This document shows positions 8,433 through 13,584 of a stretch of DNA of 25,188 nt, piece by piece. This stretch comes from a virus (Duplodnaviria > Heunggongvirae > Uroviricota > Caudoviricetes), in the IMG/VR virus record IMGVR_UViG_2547132281_000006, positions 1 to 25,188 of that record; one strand, 5' to 3'. The notes below the pieces were generated by a model. The model did not search any database. It was not told the DNA's origin and worked only from the letters and a program-made list of their open reading frames with translations. The number at the start of each line of letters is the position of its first letter. Position 1 is the stretch's first letter. A program made the translations under genes and the position numbers.

Positions 8433-8618
8433 ATGTCATCAAAGAACAGAACCCGCAGAACAACAACCCGCAACATCCGATTTCCAAACCAGATGATTGA
8501 ACAAATTAACATCGCTCTTGATCTGAAAGGTTCAGGAAACTTTTCAGCGTGGGTTATTGAAGCCTGCAGAAGAAGGCTGTCAACAGAGAGTTCGGGTATG
8601 AATTACATAATTAAGTAA
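8433..8618 (+). CDS. Small ribbon-helix-helix-like protein (YlcI/YnfO-like)
   Basis: 61 aa; basic N-terminus followed by RNIRFPNQMIEQINIAL...NFSAWVIEACRRRL; GGGGA SD 6 nt upstream; inverted repeat GACGCAG-N17-CTGCGTC at 8341-8371 upstream. Confidence 0.5.
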   Translation: MSSKNRTRRTTTRNIRFPNQMIEQINIALDLKGSGNFSAWVIEACRRRLSTESSGMNYIIK

Positions 8619-9241
8619 CATGGTGTTCACAGAACACGCAGTTACCGGACACATCAGTTTTCCATTCGCTCCCCGGCAGTACAGGCTTCCCCTCTGACGG
8701 GATAGCCTGAAAAAATAACACAGAAAATTATTTGTTATAATTAATATAACTTACTCAAAAAAAAGCGACGAGAAAATCAGCATCAACGAACAATAAGCGC
8801 CAATACGTGATAACAAATGGCAGCCATATTTATCTGCAGTATAAGCAATGGACAGGATAACCACACCAGAAACCGTCAGCATAAAATCCATTTGAACTTC
8901 CCCGGACAAAATCGACTCATCTAAAGATTTACAGCTCTTTTTATTATCAATATGTTAAAAGTAAAATAAACAGATGTTCAATAACACGAATACAAAAACG
9001 TGCTGAAATTCAATGAATCCATTTCTGTGTCATCAATTAATAGTGATAAACATCCGGCTTCTTCCACCATCGCACCGGACAGGCGACTATGAGGGGACAA
9101 CGCCGCGCTCCGTTAACGCGGTAAACCCCGGTGTGTATCGTTTTTGATTATCCCCGCACACTCGCGCAGAGGAGTCTCCCTGTCGGGCTGCGGTCTCTGT
9201 TAATGAGGGAATACAGCGACGATACGGCGCATCAACAAAAC

Positions 9242-9700
9242 TTATTTCAGGCACTGAGTGCGGATATAGTCCTGTGCCCCTTCCAGTTGCTTGTGCATCG
9301 TCATCAGCCGCTCTCTGAGGGTGAAATAATCCCGTGTAACGGTGTCTGCCAGTTGGGGGCCGGTTGCATTATCCACGCCGGAGGTGGTGGGGGCTTCATG
9401 CACGGAGCCTGGACAGGTGGCGTTGATCCGCAGGCGCTTACGACCAGCGGCAACATCAGCGCGCAGAGTTTCATTTTCAGCTCTCGCATCGGATAATTCC
9501 CTCGAGTATTTTGCATCGAGCGCAGCAACATCGCGCTGGCGCACCTGCATATCAGTAATGGTTGCGTTCGCCAGCTTCAGTTCACTGGCTTTGTTATCGC
9601 GCTGCGCTTTGTAGGTAATCGCGTTATCACGGTAATGGTCTGTTGCCATCCACAGCGCACCACAGGCCACCAGCAGAATAACGATAAACGCGGAAAGCAT
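9242..9700 (-). CDS. Rz: Rz i-spanin
   Basis: Start at internal ATG 9700 (the longest ORF extends to 9865). [14 protein letters not shown]...[10 protein letters not shown]...DYFTLRERL...KQLEG closely matches recalled lambda Rz. Confidence 0.9.
9304..9489 (-). CDS. Rz1: Rz1 o-spanin lipoprotein, embedded in Rz in another frame
   Basis: [20 protein letters not shown] lipoprotein signal with lipobox, then [30 protein letters not shown] matching recalled lambda Rz1. Confidence 0.85.
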
Positions 9701-10012
9701 TCGGTTTATGTTCACCCCAGCAGCCCCGACGAAGACAACATCACCCAGGCGAAGGACAGAAAAAGAGCAACCAGCATTAGTGAAAATGAAATACCGACAA
9801 TCACACACAGGACCTTTGCCGGCGTTATGAGTTTGTCTGACATAGCTACCCCTTAATTGCCACAATTAACTGGGATACTACCCATAAAAAAGGGATGCTC
9901 CAGACCAGCAAAAATTTCCAGTTTGGTAATTGACTAATCATGAGTCGCAACTCCCTAATCAGTTTGCTAAAATCAATCAAGGCAGCCTCCCATAGCTTAC
10001 TGCCATAAAAAC

Positions 10013-10045
10013 AAAACCCCGCTTGCTGCCAACAAACGGGGTTTT
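10013..10045. terminator. Hairpin with flanking A/T runs between lysozyme and Rz (candidate bidirectional terminator)
   Basis: AAAACCCCG - 15-nt loop - CGGGGTTTT, followed by T-rich sequence on both strands. Confidence 0.4.
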
Positions 10046-10135
10046 TACTTTTATTCACTTACATTTTGCCAGTTCGCAGGATTTCGTGTTATCCATCCGC
10101 CTTGGCCAACGTCATTTATTAGCAAAATATTCTGC

Positions 10136-10669
10136 TTATCTGTCGATTCCCCAGCACGCCAGCGCGCTCTCCTGGTCACGACGGGATACCTGACCGTAAC
10201 AGTTATTTGAGCGAATACGGCAGTCCCTGCCACCGTCCTTAATCCACCAGCGAATCGCCTCACACGCTCCCCTGCGATCACCTGCATTAATTCGTTTATA
10301 AAACGTCGACGGAAAACACTTACCGGGGCCAATGTTGTACGGACAGAATGACGCGATCCCCGCTTTCTGGGGTTCACTCAATGGCACTCTGATGTTTTTC
10401 TCCACCCATGCCAGCGCCTTATCACGCTCAATGGCGTTAACCCGGTCGCATTTTTCCTTCGACAACTTCATGCCCGGAACGACAGGTTTGCCATCCACCA
10501 GGATGGCACCGCGGCAGATGGTCCAGATACCCGCGCCATCACGGTATGCCGTGGTGTGGTTACCTTCCTTTTCATCCAGAAACTGGTCGAGAATGTCAGG
10601 CGCAGGCGCACCAGCGGCAATCAGCGCCAGAACGGCAGCCGACAGGCCGTATCTGATTTTTGTGTTCAT
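10136..10669 (-). CDS. Phage lysozyme R (GH24 endolysin, probably SAR-type)
   Basis: 177 aa; Gly/Ala-rich hydrophobic N-terminus (YGLSAAVLALIAAGAPA), then EKEGNHTTAYRDGAGIWTICRG consistent with a GH24 catalytic region. Confidence 0.85.
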   Translation of the reverse strand: MNTKIRYGLSAAVLALIAAGAPAPDILDQFLDEKEGNHTTAYRDGAGIWTICRGAILVDGKPVVPGMKLSKEKCDRVNAIERDKALAWVEKNIRVPLSEPQKAGIASFCPYNIGPGKCFPSTFYKRINAGDRRGACEAIRWWIKDGGRDCRIRSNNCYGQVSRRDQESALACWGIDR

Positions 10670-10774
10670 GGATATTTATCAGGATTTATCGGTTTCTGAG
10701 CCCTGGATATGTTTATCAGTTCCAGCCTGTTGCCTCAGGCTGCTAACAGGTCAATACAATCATGAGGATTATTT

Positions 10775-11047
10775 ATGGACAATAACACCATTTCTCTACA
10801 GGAGTTGCTCGACAGCATTTCCAGGCTTCGGGAAGACGTGAATACCCTTACCGTCGCCTTCTCATATCTGGCATTCTCAATTCCAAGGGAACAGATGCAA
10901 TCAACGCTGGCATCAATCCAGTTTGAATCATGCAATCCCAAATGGTCTCAGGAACAACAAGACTCTTTCAGGCGGCTTGCTGTATTACTGGATGAAAAAT
11001 ATGCTGGTGAAATTACCATTTCGGCGGACTCTTCAGAGAACCCGTAA
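10775..11047 (+). CDS. Hypothetical 90-aa protein, antisense insert inside the lysis cassette
   Basis: GAGGA SD 9 nt upstream; helical-looking protein; no minus-strand coding alternative in this 343-bp gap; rare AGG codons. Confidence 0.45.
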   Translation: MDNNTISLQELLDSISRLREDVNTLTVAFSYLAFSIPREQMQSTLASIQFESCNPKWSQEQQDSFRRLAVLLDEKYAGEITISADSSENP

Positions 11048-11357
11048 TTATTCCCGGTAGTTTTCCTCTGTAGGTTATCAACACATCCTGCGCCTCTAAA
11101 ATTACGGGGCGCTTTTCCGGCGACTGCTCATCCCCTTCACATAACCCGGCAGCAACATCCAGGAAGACCTGTCTGATGCTCCTTCTGGCTGCTGCCTCAT
11201 AAAACTCCAGCGCGGCACCTTCAACACGGTCCAGCGAGATGTCCAGGTCAAAAATTTCACCGTCAAAGCGTTTTTTGTCCCGTAACGCTAAAGTTACCGT
11301 AACTTTATTCTCAAAATTGCGGATCCCTTTCACAATCAGTTTATAGTTTTGAGTCAT
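11013..11357 (-). CDS. YdfR-like protein located between holin and endolysin
   Basis: 114 aa; start 4 nt after the holin stop; same position as ydfR in Qin as recalled; C-terminal ~11 aa overlap the plus-strand ORF. Confidence 0.55.
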   Translation of the reverse strand: MTQNYKLIVKGIRNFENKVTVTLALRDKKRFDGEIFDLDISLDRVEGAALEFYEAAARRSIRQVFLDVAAGLCEGDEQSPEKRPVILEAQDVLITYRGKLPGIITGSLKSPPKW

Positions 11358-11361
11358 TGAA

Positions 11362-11577
11362 TTACTCTCCCCGTGCAGCCTTACGACGGTCCTCTCTGAT
11401 TTTGAAATACAGGTTAGTCAGATATGTCAGCAGCCCAAACAGCAGACTCCCCAGCACGCCTATTGCCGCCCACTGAGACGGGGAAACCCTGTCCAGCAAC
11501 TGCAGGAACCAGTAGCCCGTTCCCACCGCTGACGTGGTGTATGACACACCTGTTGTGATTTTTTCCATCTGGTACAT
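11362..11577 (-). CDS. Holin, phage 21 S-like (pinholin class), dual-start motif MYQM
   Basis: From M27 of the longest ORF: [51 protein letters not shown] is near-identical to recalled S21; two in-frame starts 3 codons apart (11577 and 11568). Confidence 0.85.
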
Positions 11578-11727
11578 ACCCCGTCTCCCGTTATCCGGAA
11601 GCTGACAACAATAAAAAAAGCCACCAGTTAAGTACTGATGGCTCTGATAACTCATGCAGGCATCTCAGACGACCCACTGACACTACCGGTGAGTTTAACG
11701 ATACCTTCCATTTGGCTGGCTCACTTT

Positions 11728-13584
11728 TTATGATGATGCCGGTGCATTTATCTCCAGCACCAGACTTTCTATCTCAACGCCATACGCTGCATTTTTGGTA
11801 ATATCCGTCAGCGTCAGCGCATTCAGCCCCAGTGTCAGACTGTCTTTTATGACCTGGAATGCCGGGCCAGCCACTCCATTCAGTTTCGGAGTAACCGTGG
11901 CACTGCCGGCGGTGAACACCAGCTCCAGCGTCTGCCAGTCGTTACTGTAATTCCCGAACTCGCCCAACTTTGTGTTTCCTGCTTTCTTGTGATGCATCAG
12001 ATTCAGTTTGCCGTCTGTGGTCTGGGTGAAGAACGACATCAGGAACGGGTTACCAGTCCCGGTCATCGCCACGACGTCAGGTAACGCTACATCGGTATAC
12101 AGATAAATTCCCAGACCGAACTGGTTGTTGGTCAGTGCGCCTGACAGTCGAAACTTACAGCTCAGTCTGCCACCCCGTGTCAGCAGGGAGACTGCGTCAT
12201 CCACCGGATGCATCAGGGACCAGGTTTTATTGCTCTGCTTGGTAACCTTAAACACACCATCTTCCAGCGCAACACTGCCGCCGGTGATGGTCCAGCCCTG
12301 CGCAGCAGCCTCTCCGGCTGTCGGCAGCAGGGAGACTGTACGAACGGATGTGTCACCATCAGACGGCCCCGATGGAGTGTCGCCGCCGGGCGAGGGTTTG
12401 ATTTCCGGTGCCTTACCACTAATGAAGGCTAAGGTGCGACCGGCTACGTTCAGAATAGCAGTTGCCATACGATCGGGAATAATGCCACGACGCGCCCATG
12501 AGCTGAAATGCGTCGGGCGATTTGATGATACCCAATTACCATTACTACGGGATTGCGCGCCGTAATAACCTGCATCAGCAATATCCGGGTCTTCTGCCGG
12601 TAAGTTGGTGGGCGTGTTGTTGCCGTTACCGTCGGTCATGAACGGCACAAAGAAAACGTTGTCGCTCTCCCTGTTTTTGTACGCGCCGTAGACGGAGTCA
12701 TACTGTGTGCCGTATGTGTTTTTCCAGTAATACGTCGTGTCGCCACAAATCCACGGTACAACTGCAGCACTGCCGCCATGGCACTGCGCGTTAAATCCGG
12801 AAAGGTCAGTACGGAACTGCTTCAGCATGGCCGTGAACAGGTCCGGTTGCTGTGCGTAGGTGGCAGCGCTCATGTCAAATTCGCCCTGCATCCAGCACAC
12901 CGCCAGCAACACATTTTTCGGGTTCCTCTGTAATGCCGCTTTGGTGCGTGCGATCAGGTCCTGATATAACGGTTTACCCACACCCCAGCGTGCCGAATCC
13001 TGGCTGGCCCCCGTGTCCGCACTGAATGTCCCCTCCGCGCCCTGGGTGAATGCCGAACCACCACGACAGCATGGTACCAGCAGGATCCCCGCGTTATTCG
13101 GGATATACGGAAGCAGTTTTTTGGCAATATGTAAGCCCTGGCCGACACAGCCGTACTGCCCTTTGCTCAGGTCTGCCTTCGGATGATTCAGTGCGCTCAT
13201 ATCCTGAACATCATGCAGGCAGTGGTCTGCCGGAATGATGTCGTTAAATGCGCATGCTTTACCACCGGGAGTCACTGTGTTGCGACGGGCCAGTTGCTTA
13301 ATGCGTGGGTGGGGCGCATCGTAAGAATCCGGAAGCGGAAGCCCTTCACCGTAAGCCATGGCATTGGATTGCCCGGCCAGTACGATGACGTAGTACCACT
13401 CCGGCTCAGTTGCACCACTGACGACCACATCACCTTCTGCTGCAATCGCCTGCATCAGGGTATAAGGGGTTATGGCCACCGGACTACCAAACGGCTGCCA
13501 GCCCTCTTTCAGTTTATGTGTCAGCTTTTCCGCAAGATCTGACGGCGACGCCGCCCTGACAACATCATAGTGTTTAAATGCCAT
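11728..13584 (-). CDS. Prophage sialate O-acetylesterase (NanS-p type: N-terminal DUF1737-like domain plus SASA/SGNH esterase)
   Basis: Start at ATG 13584 (MAFKHYDVV, GGTGGA SD); LAGQSNAMAYGEG esterase motif; ~620 aa; sits between the stx-equivalent locus and the holin as in Stx phages. Confidence 0.8.
   Translation of the reverse strand: MAFKHYDVVRAASPSDLAEKLTHKLKEGWQPFGSPVAITPYTLMQAIAAEGDVVVSGATEPEWYYVIVLAGQSNAMAYGEGLPLPDSYDAPHPRIKQLARRNTVTPGGKACAFNDIIPADHCLHDVQDMSALNHPKADLSKGQYGCVGQGLHIAKKLLPYIPNNAGILLVPCCRGGSAFTQGAEGTFSADTGASQDSARWGVGKPLYQDLIARTKAALQRNPKNVLLAVCWMQGEFDMSAATYAQQPDLFTAMLKQFRTDLSGFNAQCHGGSAAVVPWICGDTTYYWKNTYGTQYDSVYGAYKNRESDNVFFVPFMTDGNGNNTPTNLPAEDPDIADAGYYGAQSRSNGNWVSSNRPTHFSSWARRGIIPDRMATAILNVAGRTLAFISGKAPEIKPSPGGDTPSGPSDGDTSVRTVSLLPTAGEAAAQGWTITGGSVALEDGVFKVTKQSNKTWSLMHPVDDAVSLLTRGGRLSCKFRLSGALTNNQFGLGIYLYTDVALPDVVAMTGTGNPFLMSFFTQTTDGKLNLMHHKKAGNTKLGEFGNYSNDWQTLELVFTAGSATVTPKLNGVAGPAFQVIKDSLTLGLNALTLTDITKNAAYGVEIESLVLEINAPASS

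Follow-up and report, generated by a model that had tools for sequence, protein, structure and literature searches.

A mobile hairpin and predicted membrane-peptide unit at the endolysin-spanin junction of an Escherichia coli lambdoid prophage

Introduction

The lysis cassettes of lambdoid and Shiga-toxin (Stx) phages are commonly viewed as consisting of a holin, an endolysin and spanins. The present study concerns the 435 nt that separate the endolysin gene R from the i-spanin gene Rz in an Escherichia coli lambdoid prophage, contained in a 25,188-nt stretch of viral DNA (IMG/VR record IMGVR_UViG_2547132281_000006, positions 1 to 25,188; hereafter the window). These 435 nt hold a hairpin of the intrinsic-terminator type and two small open reading frames (ORFs), designated ORF-A and ORF-B, each predicted to encode a single-pass membrane peptide. 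The described systems closest to this locus are accessory lysis proteins, dual-start holins, type I toxin-antitoxin (TA) modules and morons.

Lcc6 of the Shewanella phage LambdaSo is a small single-pass inner-membrane accessory lysis protein of 65 aa (bioRxiv 10.1101/2024.01.23.576932). Releasin (gp25) of phage Mu is a 99-aa DUF2730 protein with an N-terminal transmembrane domain (TMD; N-out) and a cytoplasmic domain of about 70 aa (PMC9239132). Both indicate that cassettes whose endolysin is of the signal-anchor-release (SAR) type can require extra membrane factors. The predicted products of ORF-A and ORF-B resemble them in being small, single-pass inner-membrane proteins of a SAR-endolysin phage that are neither holin, endolysin nor spanin. 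However, no sequence similarity to either protein and no DUF2730 match was found, the products are of 43-44 aa, and the topology differs: Lcc6 and gp25 combine an N-terminal TMD with a cytoplasmic C-terminal domain, whereas ORF-A is predicted to have its TMD at the C-terminus and a cytoplasmic helix at the N-terminus, and ORF-B consists almost entirely of TMD. Furthermore, lcc6 lies far from the lysis genes, in contrast to ORF-A and ORF-B, and ORF-A, unlike the genes of Lcc6 and gp25, also occurs with non-SAR endolysins and outside lysis cassettes.

The holin genes of lambda (S107/S105) and phage 21 (S71/S68) have two in-frame starts, each with its own Shine-Dalgarno (SD) sequence. ORF-A resembles them in this arrangement and as a predicted membrane-peptide gene of a lysis operon, and its long form likewise carries extra charged N-terminal residues. 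Unlike the holins, ORF-A has one TMD, an extension of 13 residues (two or three in the holins) and no charged C-terminal tail; its use of two starts is a prediction, and the cassette already possesses an S21-type pinholin. Neither ORF-A nor ORF-B matches a Pfam holin family or has the charged hydrophilic C-terminal domain of holins and antiholins.

In type I TA systems a cis-antisense RNA may cover the ribosome-binding site of the toxin gene, as in symE/SymR, and small peptides are the products of Hok/Sok, Ldr/Rdl and Ibs/Sib; similarly, the sar RNA of phage P22 masks the ribosome-binding site of ant. The locus described here is similar in having a gene for a small hydrophobic peptide, a candidate antisense promoter in the first ORF-A codons, a predicted RNA of about 77 nt directed against SD and start codon and ending in a Rho-independent terminator, and modular mobility. 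It differs from type I TA systems in that the module has neither a dedicated toxin promoter nor homology to a toxin family, and in that selection on the hairpin acts in the sense transcript; toxicity is a prediction here, as is the antisense RNA.

Finally, morons are known from lambdoid late operons (Juhala et al., 2000, as cited in PMC4104026). The locus resembles them as extra, mosaic, variable and dispensable DNA between late genes, and in Stx phages ant occupies this very R-Rz site. A classical moron is a promoter-gene-terminator unit expressed from the prophage; here the terminator-type hairpin lies upstream of the genes, the search for a sense promoter gave none, and translation of the genes would be chained into that of Rz.

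The R-Rz gap is a derived insertion

The late region of the window lies on the minus strand, in the order pinholin, YdfR/DUF1327, R, gap, Rz/Rz1. The left anchor of the gap, R (10136-10669 including the stop, minus strand), encodes a SAR-type GH24 endolysin (Pfam Phage_lysozyme, 1.3e-23; phrog_7 endolysin, 2.4e-61), the N-terminus of which reads as the hydrophobic MNTKIRYGLSAAVLALIAAGAPAP. The right anchor is Rz (9242-9700, ATG 9698-9700, minus strand; Pfam Phage_lysis, 9.4e-47; phrog_13), which contains the o-spanin gene Rz1 (9304-9489, minus strand; lipobox LVVSAC in the +1-frame ORF). An earlier note on this DNA had placed 435 bp between a lysozyme stop at 10136 and an Rz start at 9700, and both coordinates are exact, the gap being 9701-10135. 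In the late direction it comprises a 90-nt trailer of R, the hairpin, ORF-A and ORF-B, followed by Rz. The genes are packed head to tail, with 2 nt between the ORF-A stop and the ORF-B start and 11 nt between the ORF-B end and the Rz ATG.

Related cassettes were collected from other Enterobacterales with R as probe, one genome per species, any membrane-anchored ORF of 110 aa or more being taken as an i-spanin. Its start lay within 30 nt of the R stop in 63 of the 76 prophages carrying the same endolysin. Overlaps of the Rz start with the R stop (GTGA or TGATG) were seen in E. albertii, E. ruysiae and Mangrovibacter, among others, and in the K-12 prophage Qin rrrQ overlaps rzpQ. Since R and the spanin gene adjoin or overlap in relatives, the 435 nt are a derived insertion, that is, extra DNA between genes adjacent in relatives, as in morons. 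The alignment with related cassettes that the note had recommended places it exactly between the R stop and the Rz start, and the proposed insertion relative to an adjacent common state is borne out. The observation is genuine rather than artefactual.

The segment or parts of it were present in 2043 of 5426 complete E. coli genomes, and at least 80% of it in 702. The insertion is mosaic: the first approximately 85 nt after R are common to all variants, and the remainder occurs in a few arrangements, namely A-B (435 nt, this window), A-B-C'-D (651 nt), C-B (496 nt), A8 alone (307 nt) and, in Stx phages, ant-B or ant-A'-B (about 1.0-1.2 kb). Module boundaries match ORF boundaries, and in each variant the last small ORF stops 1-11 nt before Rz. 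ORF-C (60 aa, ending in ...ISRALAFAIKWVAVGVAVSPMLYGLAKLVIALKS) and ORF-D (28 aa, MSAELIRAMAFAIRIVAIAVLVWAIRWW) were found in this gap in further E. coli prophages (L002-L005 as well as many IMG/VR loci; ORFs of this type lie, for example, at L004 1888-2141 and L005 1657-1839). They are related to each other (phrog_1115/4493/3246, no assigned function), and a C-terminal IRWW that adjoins one Rz type is common to ORF-D and the A8 form of ORF-A. All four families, A to D, are tiny and have one hydrophobic helix long enough to span the membrane.

Two small ORFs for membrane peptides

ORF-B (9712-9843, minus strand; SD AAGGGG at 9849-9854) is predicted to encode a 43-aa single-pass membrane peptide, at exactly the coordinates first proposed, and matches phrog_4906 over residues 1-43 (5.3e-21). 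In a tblastn search it was recovered full-length and ungapped, at 63-98% identity, in 276 phage records, including 933W, Min27, phi24B and O104:H4 phages. It lay directly upstream of Rz or of another small ORF in all of the approximately 60 loci inspected. The gene is unannotated in the original phage records and appears as a hypothetical protein in RefSeq PGAP (e.g., WP_001280933.1). Three start contexts were observed, each with an SD or a stop/start overlap, one of them a TGATG overlap with the ant stop; in 933W-type phages the start lies five codons earlier, over the ant stop. Neither indel nor stop codon was found at 59 of 61 loci (63-100% aa identity), so that reading frame and length persist across 37% aa divergence. 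Pairwise dN/dS was 0.48 in frame and 0.8-1.15 in the other frames, and 18 of 25 changes at hydrophobic positions retain hydrophobicity. An N-terminal SDKLI, a core with G17xxxS21, and W33 are conserved; the C-terminus reads SSSGLLG, and the end of the ORF includes GGGGTGA, an SD-like sequence for Rz.

The ORF-B family is narrow. All 101 matches with a named source (90% cluster level) were from E. coli, and only 29 matches were recovered when 1.84 billion representative proteins were searched with a profile; judged from match length and query span, these appear to be members or fragments of this one narrow family. In E. coli O157:H7 Sakai the 933W-type homologue has been reported as the novel gene XECs191 (Hücker et al., 2017; PMC5597208). 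In lysogeny broth (LB) it showed a transcript level of 30.0 and a translatome level of 12.6 reads per kilobase per million mapped reads (RPKM), with a ribosome coverage value (RCV) of 0.43 and a coverage of 0.55, and the authors classed it as "real" and predicted an inner-membrane location (PMC5597208). This ribosome profiling (Ribo-seq) support is weak. The strings of ORF-A, ORF-C and ORF-D are not in the Sakai Ribo-seq supplements, and a literature search of main texts found no occurrence of the peptide sequences.

With regard to ORF-A, the first description gave 31 aa at 9846-9941. That frame is exact from ATG to stop, but the gene is better read as 44 aa from a TTG at 9978-9980 (9846-9980, minus strand; phrog_6632), and the 31 aa may be a second product. 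The profile match to phrog_6632 (1.3e-12, residues 28-69 of a 70-aa reading; 1.2e-29 for the A8 variant) reaches upstream of the ATG originally chosen, which is Met14 of the 44-aa form. Neither phrog_6632 nor phrog_4906 has an assigned function. Homologues of 45 aa were found in Enterobacter, Citrobacter and Klebsiella, with relatives of other lengths in Providencia and Salmonella. Starts were read at the DNA level in the first three genera and in two assemblies of undetermined species. They are ATG or GTG, lie exactly at the TTG of the window and stand behind GGGAGG. Because homologues in other genera start at this position, ORF-A probably comprises 44 aa from the TTG at 9980 rather than 31 aa.

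Within the longer frame, an internal SD (GGAG in AGGGAG, 9951-9956) precedes ATG14 (9939-9941) by 9 nt, both being invariant in 29 of 29 unique sequences, and natural ORF-A variants with the short form alone exist. This invariance and the natural short-only variants make it plausible that two starts yield products of 44 aa and 31 aa. The transmembrane part of ORF-A, compared with the version of an ant-carrying phage (L006), had synonymous (pS) and non-synonymous (pN) differences of 0.39 and 0.13 per site. Its best 19-aa hydropathy window covers residues 24-42, and its C-terminus is KG. The single transmembrane segment earlier proposed for each ORF agrees with a single hydrophobic helix in both (Kyte-Doolittle values of 2.19 and 2.87 over 19 aa). 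The ORF-A protein is conserved across at least five genera, also at sites without a downstream spanin gene. The assignment to PHROG families, the conserved frames and starts, and the weak Ribo-seq signal of XECs191 make it very likely that both ORFs are real genes for single-pass membrane peptides.

Two further observations concern ORF-A-like sequences. In three IMG/VR loci (L277-L279) the N-terminal extension of an ORF-A variant is scrambled (LFIVYKLLVEIR...) and the upstream hairpin is missing, and an ORF of 68 aa that overlaps the variant in another frame contains a second sequence resembling ORF-A (...LIKELREMGERLPNWKFLLIW...), which suggests a duplication or rearrangement of the module. 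A 22-aa ORF on the plus strand was also reported near ORF-A; it exists, at 9940-10008, one base off the 9939-10007 initially given, and is not conserved, its ATG being lost in the A8 variant.

A hairpin that travels with ORF-A

The hairpin noted at 10013-10045 (minus strand), with A/T runs on both sides, is confirmed. It has 15 pairs (six of them G-C) and a 3-nt loop, with an A-rich run 5' and GTTTTTATGG 3' (U-tail 10003-10012). The minus, late-sense strand gives a fold of -25 kcal/mol (z = -4.8, none of 200 shuffles as good), the plus strand one of -15.3 kcal/mol. It is a predicted terminator, with a G+C-rich stem-loop followed by a U-run on the transcribed strand, and owing to the A-rich 5' flank it has a bidirectional form, with T-rich tails on both sides. 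Among 24 distinct versions, 6 of 13 pairs showed compensatory changes and 97.4% of cells were paired, a covariation approached by none of 500 shuffles or slid controls. Eleven G.U pairs were counted in the sense orientation and none in the antisense one, where the mirror case is A.C. Because of this asymmetry, the hairpin is selected as a structure of the late-sense transcript. A consensus promoter and terminator scan of the region as a whole gave no more sites than shuffles.

In all contexts of full-length ORF-A homologues (approximately 37 distinct versions) the hairpin lies 28-36 nt upstream of the start, and in every one it has U-rich flanks and a G+C stem. A second, small stem-loop, GGCAG(N14)CUGCC (9981-10004, minus strand), appears in the folds, and its loop carries the ORF-A SD GGGAGG (9986-9991); read by eye, the alignment shows a different small stem at this position in other variants. 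Both natural kinds of short-only ORF-A are devoid of the 13-codon extension and of the hairpin, a joint loss that fits a single functional unit.

The order endolysin, hairpin, ORF-A, spanin recurs with five unrelated endolysins (GH24-SAR, GH19, M15 peptidase, phrog_873 of 138 aa and a CHAP-like protein of 161 aa) and three spanin types (PF03245 Rz, phrog_1026/1275 and DUF2514), and in one assembly hairpin, ORF-A and ORF-B stand as a block behind the M15 endolysin. Given that this lysis-cassette order recurs and that tail and baseplate sites are also occupied, the hairpin and ORF-A form a mobile unit with a strong but non-exclusive preference for the endolysin-spanin junction.

A candidate antisense promoter within ORF-A

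A candidate promoter on the plus strand lies inside ORF-A, at 9945-9973. It consists of a -35 TCGCAA (9945-9950), a 17-nt spacer and an extended -10 TGCTAAAAT (9965-9973), and was seen at the same position in 7 of 7 contexts examined. Among the 29 unique sequences, ORF-A codons 3-6 (GAT TTT AGC AAA), 10 (GAG) and 12 (CGA, a rare Arg codon in E. coli) showed zero synonymous variation. Synonymous diversity was 0.5-0.75 at codons 22-26, and the DNA flanking the codon 3-12 island is highly diverged. These data show a nucleotide-level constraint on codons 3-12. Part of it, at codons 9-10, arises because GGAG-N9-ATG14 lies there. On the plus strand, the frozen synonymous sites fall on the TG and on positions 2 and 5 of the -10, and replacement of F4 by I or L, the sole kind of amino-acid change seen in the island, affects -10 position 4. 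The string TGNTAAAAT occurs twice in the 25-kb window, against 1.03 occurrences expected.

Transcription from this site is predicted to start approximately at the ORF-A start codon and to run into the hairpin, giving an RNA of about 77 nt (9980-10056, plus strand) as judged from promoter position and hairpin. The predicted RNA folds at -21.9 kcal/mol into a 5' stem-loop exposing the anti-SD CCUCCC, the complement of the ORF-A SD, followed by the reversed hairpin and UUUUUACUUUUAUU. That an antisense RNA is made from the conserved extended -10 promoter appears possible to us, at somewhat below an even chance.

For the sense direction, a standard scan found no promoter-like site on the minus strand in 9200-11800. 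The DNA upstream of ORF-A is unrelated between contexts, the 28-36 nt between hairpin and start being all that is left for a promoter, and no promoter of ORF-A's own, as a type I toxin gene would have, was found. A plus-strand promoter-like site at 9837-9866 was discarded: its -35 is the complement of the first ORF-B codons and its -10 is not conserved elsewhere. Known prophage small RNAs (sRNAs) were also considered as a match and set aside, as the Pas sRNAs are encoded elsewhere, between the genes for sialate esterase and holin. In its main text, the Hfq study by Tree et al. (2014) places prophage sRNAs solely at the moron site downstream of PR' and leaves lysis genes unmentioned.

Functional interpretation

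The explanation that we consider best, with nearly even confidence, is an accessory module of tightly gated, late inner-membrane peptides acting at lysis. Q antitermination of late transcription is established lambdoid biology. During lytic growth, Q-modified RNA polymerase from pR' would read through the hairpin, and ribosomes would pass from ORF-A to ORF-B and on to Rz in chained translation. The peptides would insert N-in into the inner membrane as pinholin, SAR endolysin and spanins act, and would modulate this step, perhaps by affecting when, or how robustly, depolarisation and lysis take place. In the lysogen the hairpin would stop stray read-through, and a constitutive antisense RNA of about 77 nt would probably mask the ORF-A ribosome-binding site. 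Such a double lock of terminator and antisense RNA would imply a product that is harmful if made early. It had been suggested that a terminator here would uncouple Rz/Rz1 from R; this would not apply in lytic growth if late transcription is Q-antiterminated, with translation chained from ORF-A through ORF-B to Rz.

A lysis-modulating role of the peptides, taken by itself, is a tentative and rather doubtful proposal. A bolder version seems unlikely to us, in which hairpin and ORF-A would be a hitherto unrecognised, mobile, doubly locked, dual-start lysis component at the junction with at least five unrelated endolysins, both ORF-A forms and ORF-B would tune inner-membrane collapse, and the peptides would make up a fourth class beside holin, endolysin and spanin, carried by Stx phages such as 933W (ORF-B) and by thousands of E. 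coli genomes.

Several findings weigh against the accessory lysis module. ORF-B is frameshifted at 2 of 61 loci, ORF-A is seven codons shorter through a stop in a widespread lineage of Shiga toxin-producing E. coli (STEC), and at one other locus a stop falls in the N-terminal extension of ORF-A; since such frameshifts and truncations occur, neither peptide is essential. Codon-level selection on ORF-B is modest, with a site-level count of 19 synonymous against 35 non-synonymous changes (p = 0.09). The hairpin and ORF-A unit is also found preceding the sheath initiator in baseplate operons and preceding gpJ in a tail operon, sites that fit a generic mobile "moron" equally well as a lysis factor. 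No match to Pfam or NCBIfam (E <= 0.01-0.1), toxins and holins included, was obtained for ORF-A, B, C or D, and we found no homology to holins, antiholins, releasin, known toxins or defence proteins. As for the antisense gate, the -35 matches the consensus at 3 of 6 positions, for which reason a standard promoter scan does not call the 9945-9973 site; the published prophage sRNA work examined contains no transcript evidence for the RNA; and the G.U asymmetry argues that the selected role of the hairpin is in the sense RNA.

The alternative that survives best, although we think it unlikely, is that hairpin and ORF-A form an antisense-gated type I TA-like module serving self-maintenance or abortive infection. 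ORF-A would then be a membrane-depolarising toxin, the 77-nt RNA its antitoxin and the hairpin the terminator of the antitoxin, the whole being selfish cargo that moves among intergenic sites of late operons, with ORF-B as an unrelated neighbour. The movement of hairpin and ORF-A as a unit into lysis, tail and baseplate operons would be as expected, as would the small, hydrophobic product and the joint loss of extension and hairpin in the short variants. The conserved extended -10 in the 5' coding region, with a predicted transcription start near the start codon, recalls symE/SymR, in which the promoter lies within the 5' coding region and the antisense start near the start codon, and the predicted RNA has a looped anti-SD followed by a terminator. 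However, ORF-A has no sense promoter, with 28-36 nt between hairpin and start and different upstream DNA in each context; the G.U pairs place selection on the hairpin in the sense transcript; and a strong preference for the junction across five cassette types is unexpected for a purely selfish element. In addition, no toxin family of the Hok, Ldr, TisB, Ibs, ShoB, Zor or DinQ type and no Rfam antitoxin RNA was matched. The type I or antisense-like module proposed in the earlier note gains in silico support from the conserved plus-strand extended -10, the frozen synonymous sites and the bidirectional-looking hairpin, but not from a sense promoter, from a toxin family or from the strand on which the hairpin is selected.

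It is quite improbable, in our view, that the small ORFs merely carry ribosomes to Rz by termination-reinitiation and that their peptides are functionless. The overlap of the Rz start with the R stop in insertion-free relatives, the stop of the last small ORF 1-11 nt before Rz in each variant, the SD-like GGGGTGA within the ORF-B end and the moderate selection on the ORF-B peptide are all compatible with it. Such a relay would need neither 43-44 codons nor a G17xxxS21 core, however, and it does not account for the hydrophobic helix of membrane-spanning length encoded by A, B, C and D alike, for the retained hydrophobicity in 18 of 25 ORF-B changes at hydrophobic positions, or for the conservation of the ORF-A protein across genera and at spanin-free sites.

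We attach a similarly small probability to cargo for lysogenic conversion, a classical moron whose peptides would be made in the lysogen for host benefit or phage exclusion. The R-Rz gap is a cargo site, with ant in Stx phages and variable small genes elsewhere, and ORF-A modules stand at other moron sites, before gpJ and in baseplate operons. XECs191 gave a low transcript and ribosome signal in uninduced cultures, but spontaneous induction could explain it. Moreover, no sense promoter was found between R and ORF-A, the terminator precedes the genes instead of trailing them, and searches with PADLOC defence profiles (E <= 0.1) gave no match for ORF-A, B, C or D.

Finally, a non-coding spacer, in which the hairpin would be the endolysin terminator and the ORFs chance frames hitch-hiking with it, is very improbable: both ORFs are dispensable in some lineages, the site-level synonymous excess of ORF-B is not significant and the terminator- and promoter-like sites of the region do not outnumber those of shuffles, but frame and length have been maintained without indels across 37% aa divergence, start codons and SDs are conserved in three contexts, the ORF-A protein is conserved in five or more genera, mosaic boundaries coincide with ORF boundaries, and a Ribo-seq candidate exists. 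Related phages do not appear to show the region as the conserved non-coding spacer that the note had set against its own proposal, the ORF-B frame being intact at 59 of 61 loci, although ORFs are broken in some lineages.

A suspected likeness of the ORF-B core VAIFLS to the LS motif of the MS2 L protein was dropped, as BLASTP gave no alignment at E <= 100. A sequence search of the PDB with the ORF-B profile likewise gave no match.

Other features of the lysis region

The R 3' trailer (10046-10135, minus strand) is conserved in alignments, and down to AAGTGAATAAA (10050-10060) it is common to all insertion variants, ant-carrying Stx phages included. It contains a hypervariable stretch of approximately 20 nt at about 10089-10108, plus 10061-10065 (minus strand), with at least seven distinct versions, bordered by the blocks GCAGAATATTTTGC, GGATAACACGAAATCCTGCGAACTGGC and AAGTGAATAAA, which are invariant in all insertion variants. 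RNAalifold on 24 E. coli versions of the trailer found no compensatory pairs. A 24-codon TTG ORF in the trailer was rejected; it is probably non-coding because stop codons interrupt it in many loci. In the ant-carrying Stx phages (L010-L013 and L015) a different terminator-like hairpin, GGCACCGTAATGGTGCC followed by TTTGTCATTT, occupies the same place, at about 95-140 nt past the R stop. As the ant variants swap in this other terminator-like hairpin, a hairpin after the trailer is kept in both versions.

The holin of the cassette is an S21-type pinholin (11362-11577, minus strand; PF04971). A second insertion occupies the holin-endolysin gap of the same cassette (10775-11357), with the YdfR/DUF1327 gene (11013-11357, minus strand; PF07041, 4.5e-42) and an opposite-strand ORF of 90 aa overlapping the ydfR 3' end (10775-11047, plus strand; phrog_2411, 1.5e-58, no assigned function). 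In 933W, unlike in the window, S and R are adjacent.

Approximately 40 nt upstream of the pinholin start lies a terminator-like hairpin (11617-11645, minus strand) of 12 pairs followed by TTTTATTGTT. The PasA/C/D sRNA genes have been located between the sialate esterase and holin genes (2026 preprint), and this hairpin may be the 3' end of a Pas-type sRNA. An Rfam scan of 8500-12000 matched no family. Downstream of Rz, on the opposite strand, a 61-aa YlcI/YnfO (DUF3950)-like gene (8433-8618, plus strand) is named by position alone, which is that of the PGAP-annotated YlcI/YnfO gene in related loci.

Biological significance

The existence of ORF-A and ORF-B is not new, since they are catalogued as hypothetical proteins and in PHROGs, and one of them has a prior Ribo-seq mention. 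What appears to be new is the conserved unit of hairpin and dual-start peptide gene at the endolysin-spanin junction of unrelated cassettes, as well as the corrected ORF-A start and the candidate antisense promoter. Conserved genes for predicted membrane peptides lie within the lysis operon, with ORF-B in 276 phage records, 933W among them, and parts of the segment in approximately 2,000 of 5,426 complete E. coli genomes. Mu releasin and LambdaSo Lcc6 are recent precedents for overlooked lysis factors of similar size. If ORF-A were instead an antisense-gated toxin, a type-I-like module would be resident in phage late operons. Should the accessory lysis module that we favour be correct and the peptides modulate lysis timing, this would bear on burst size and on the release of Stx, as toxin release by STEC depends on the lysis step.

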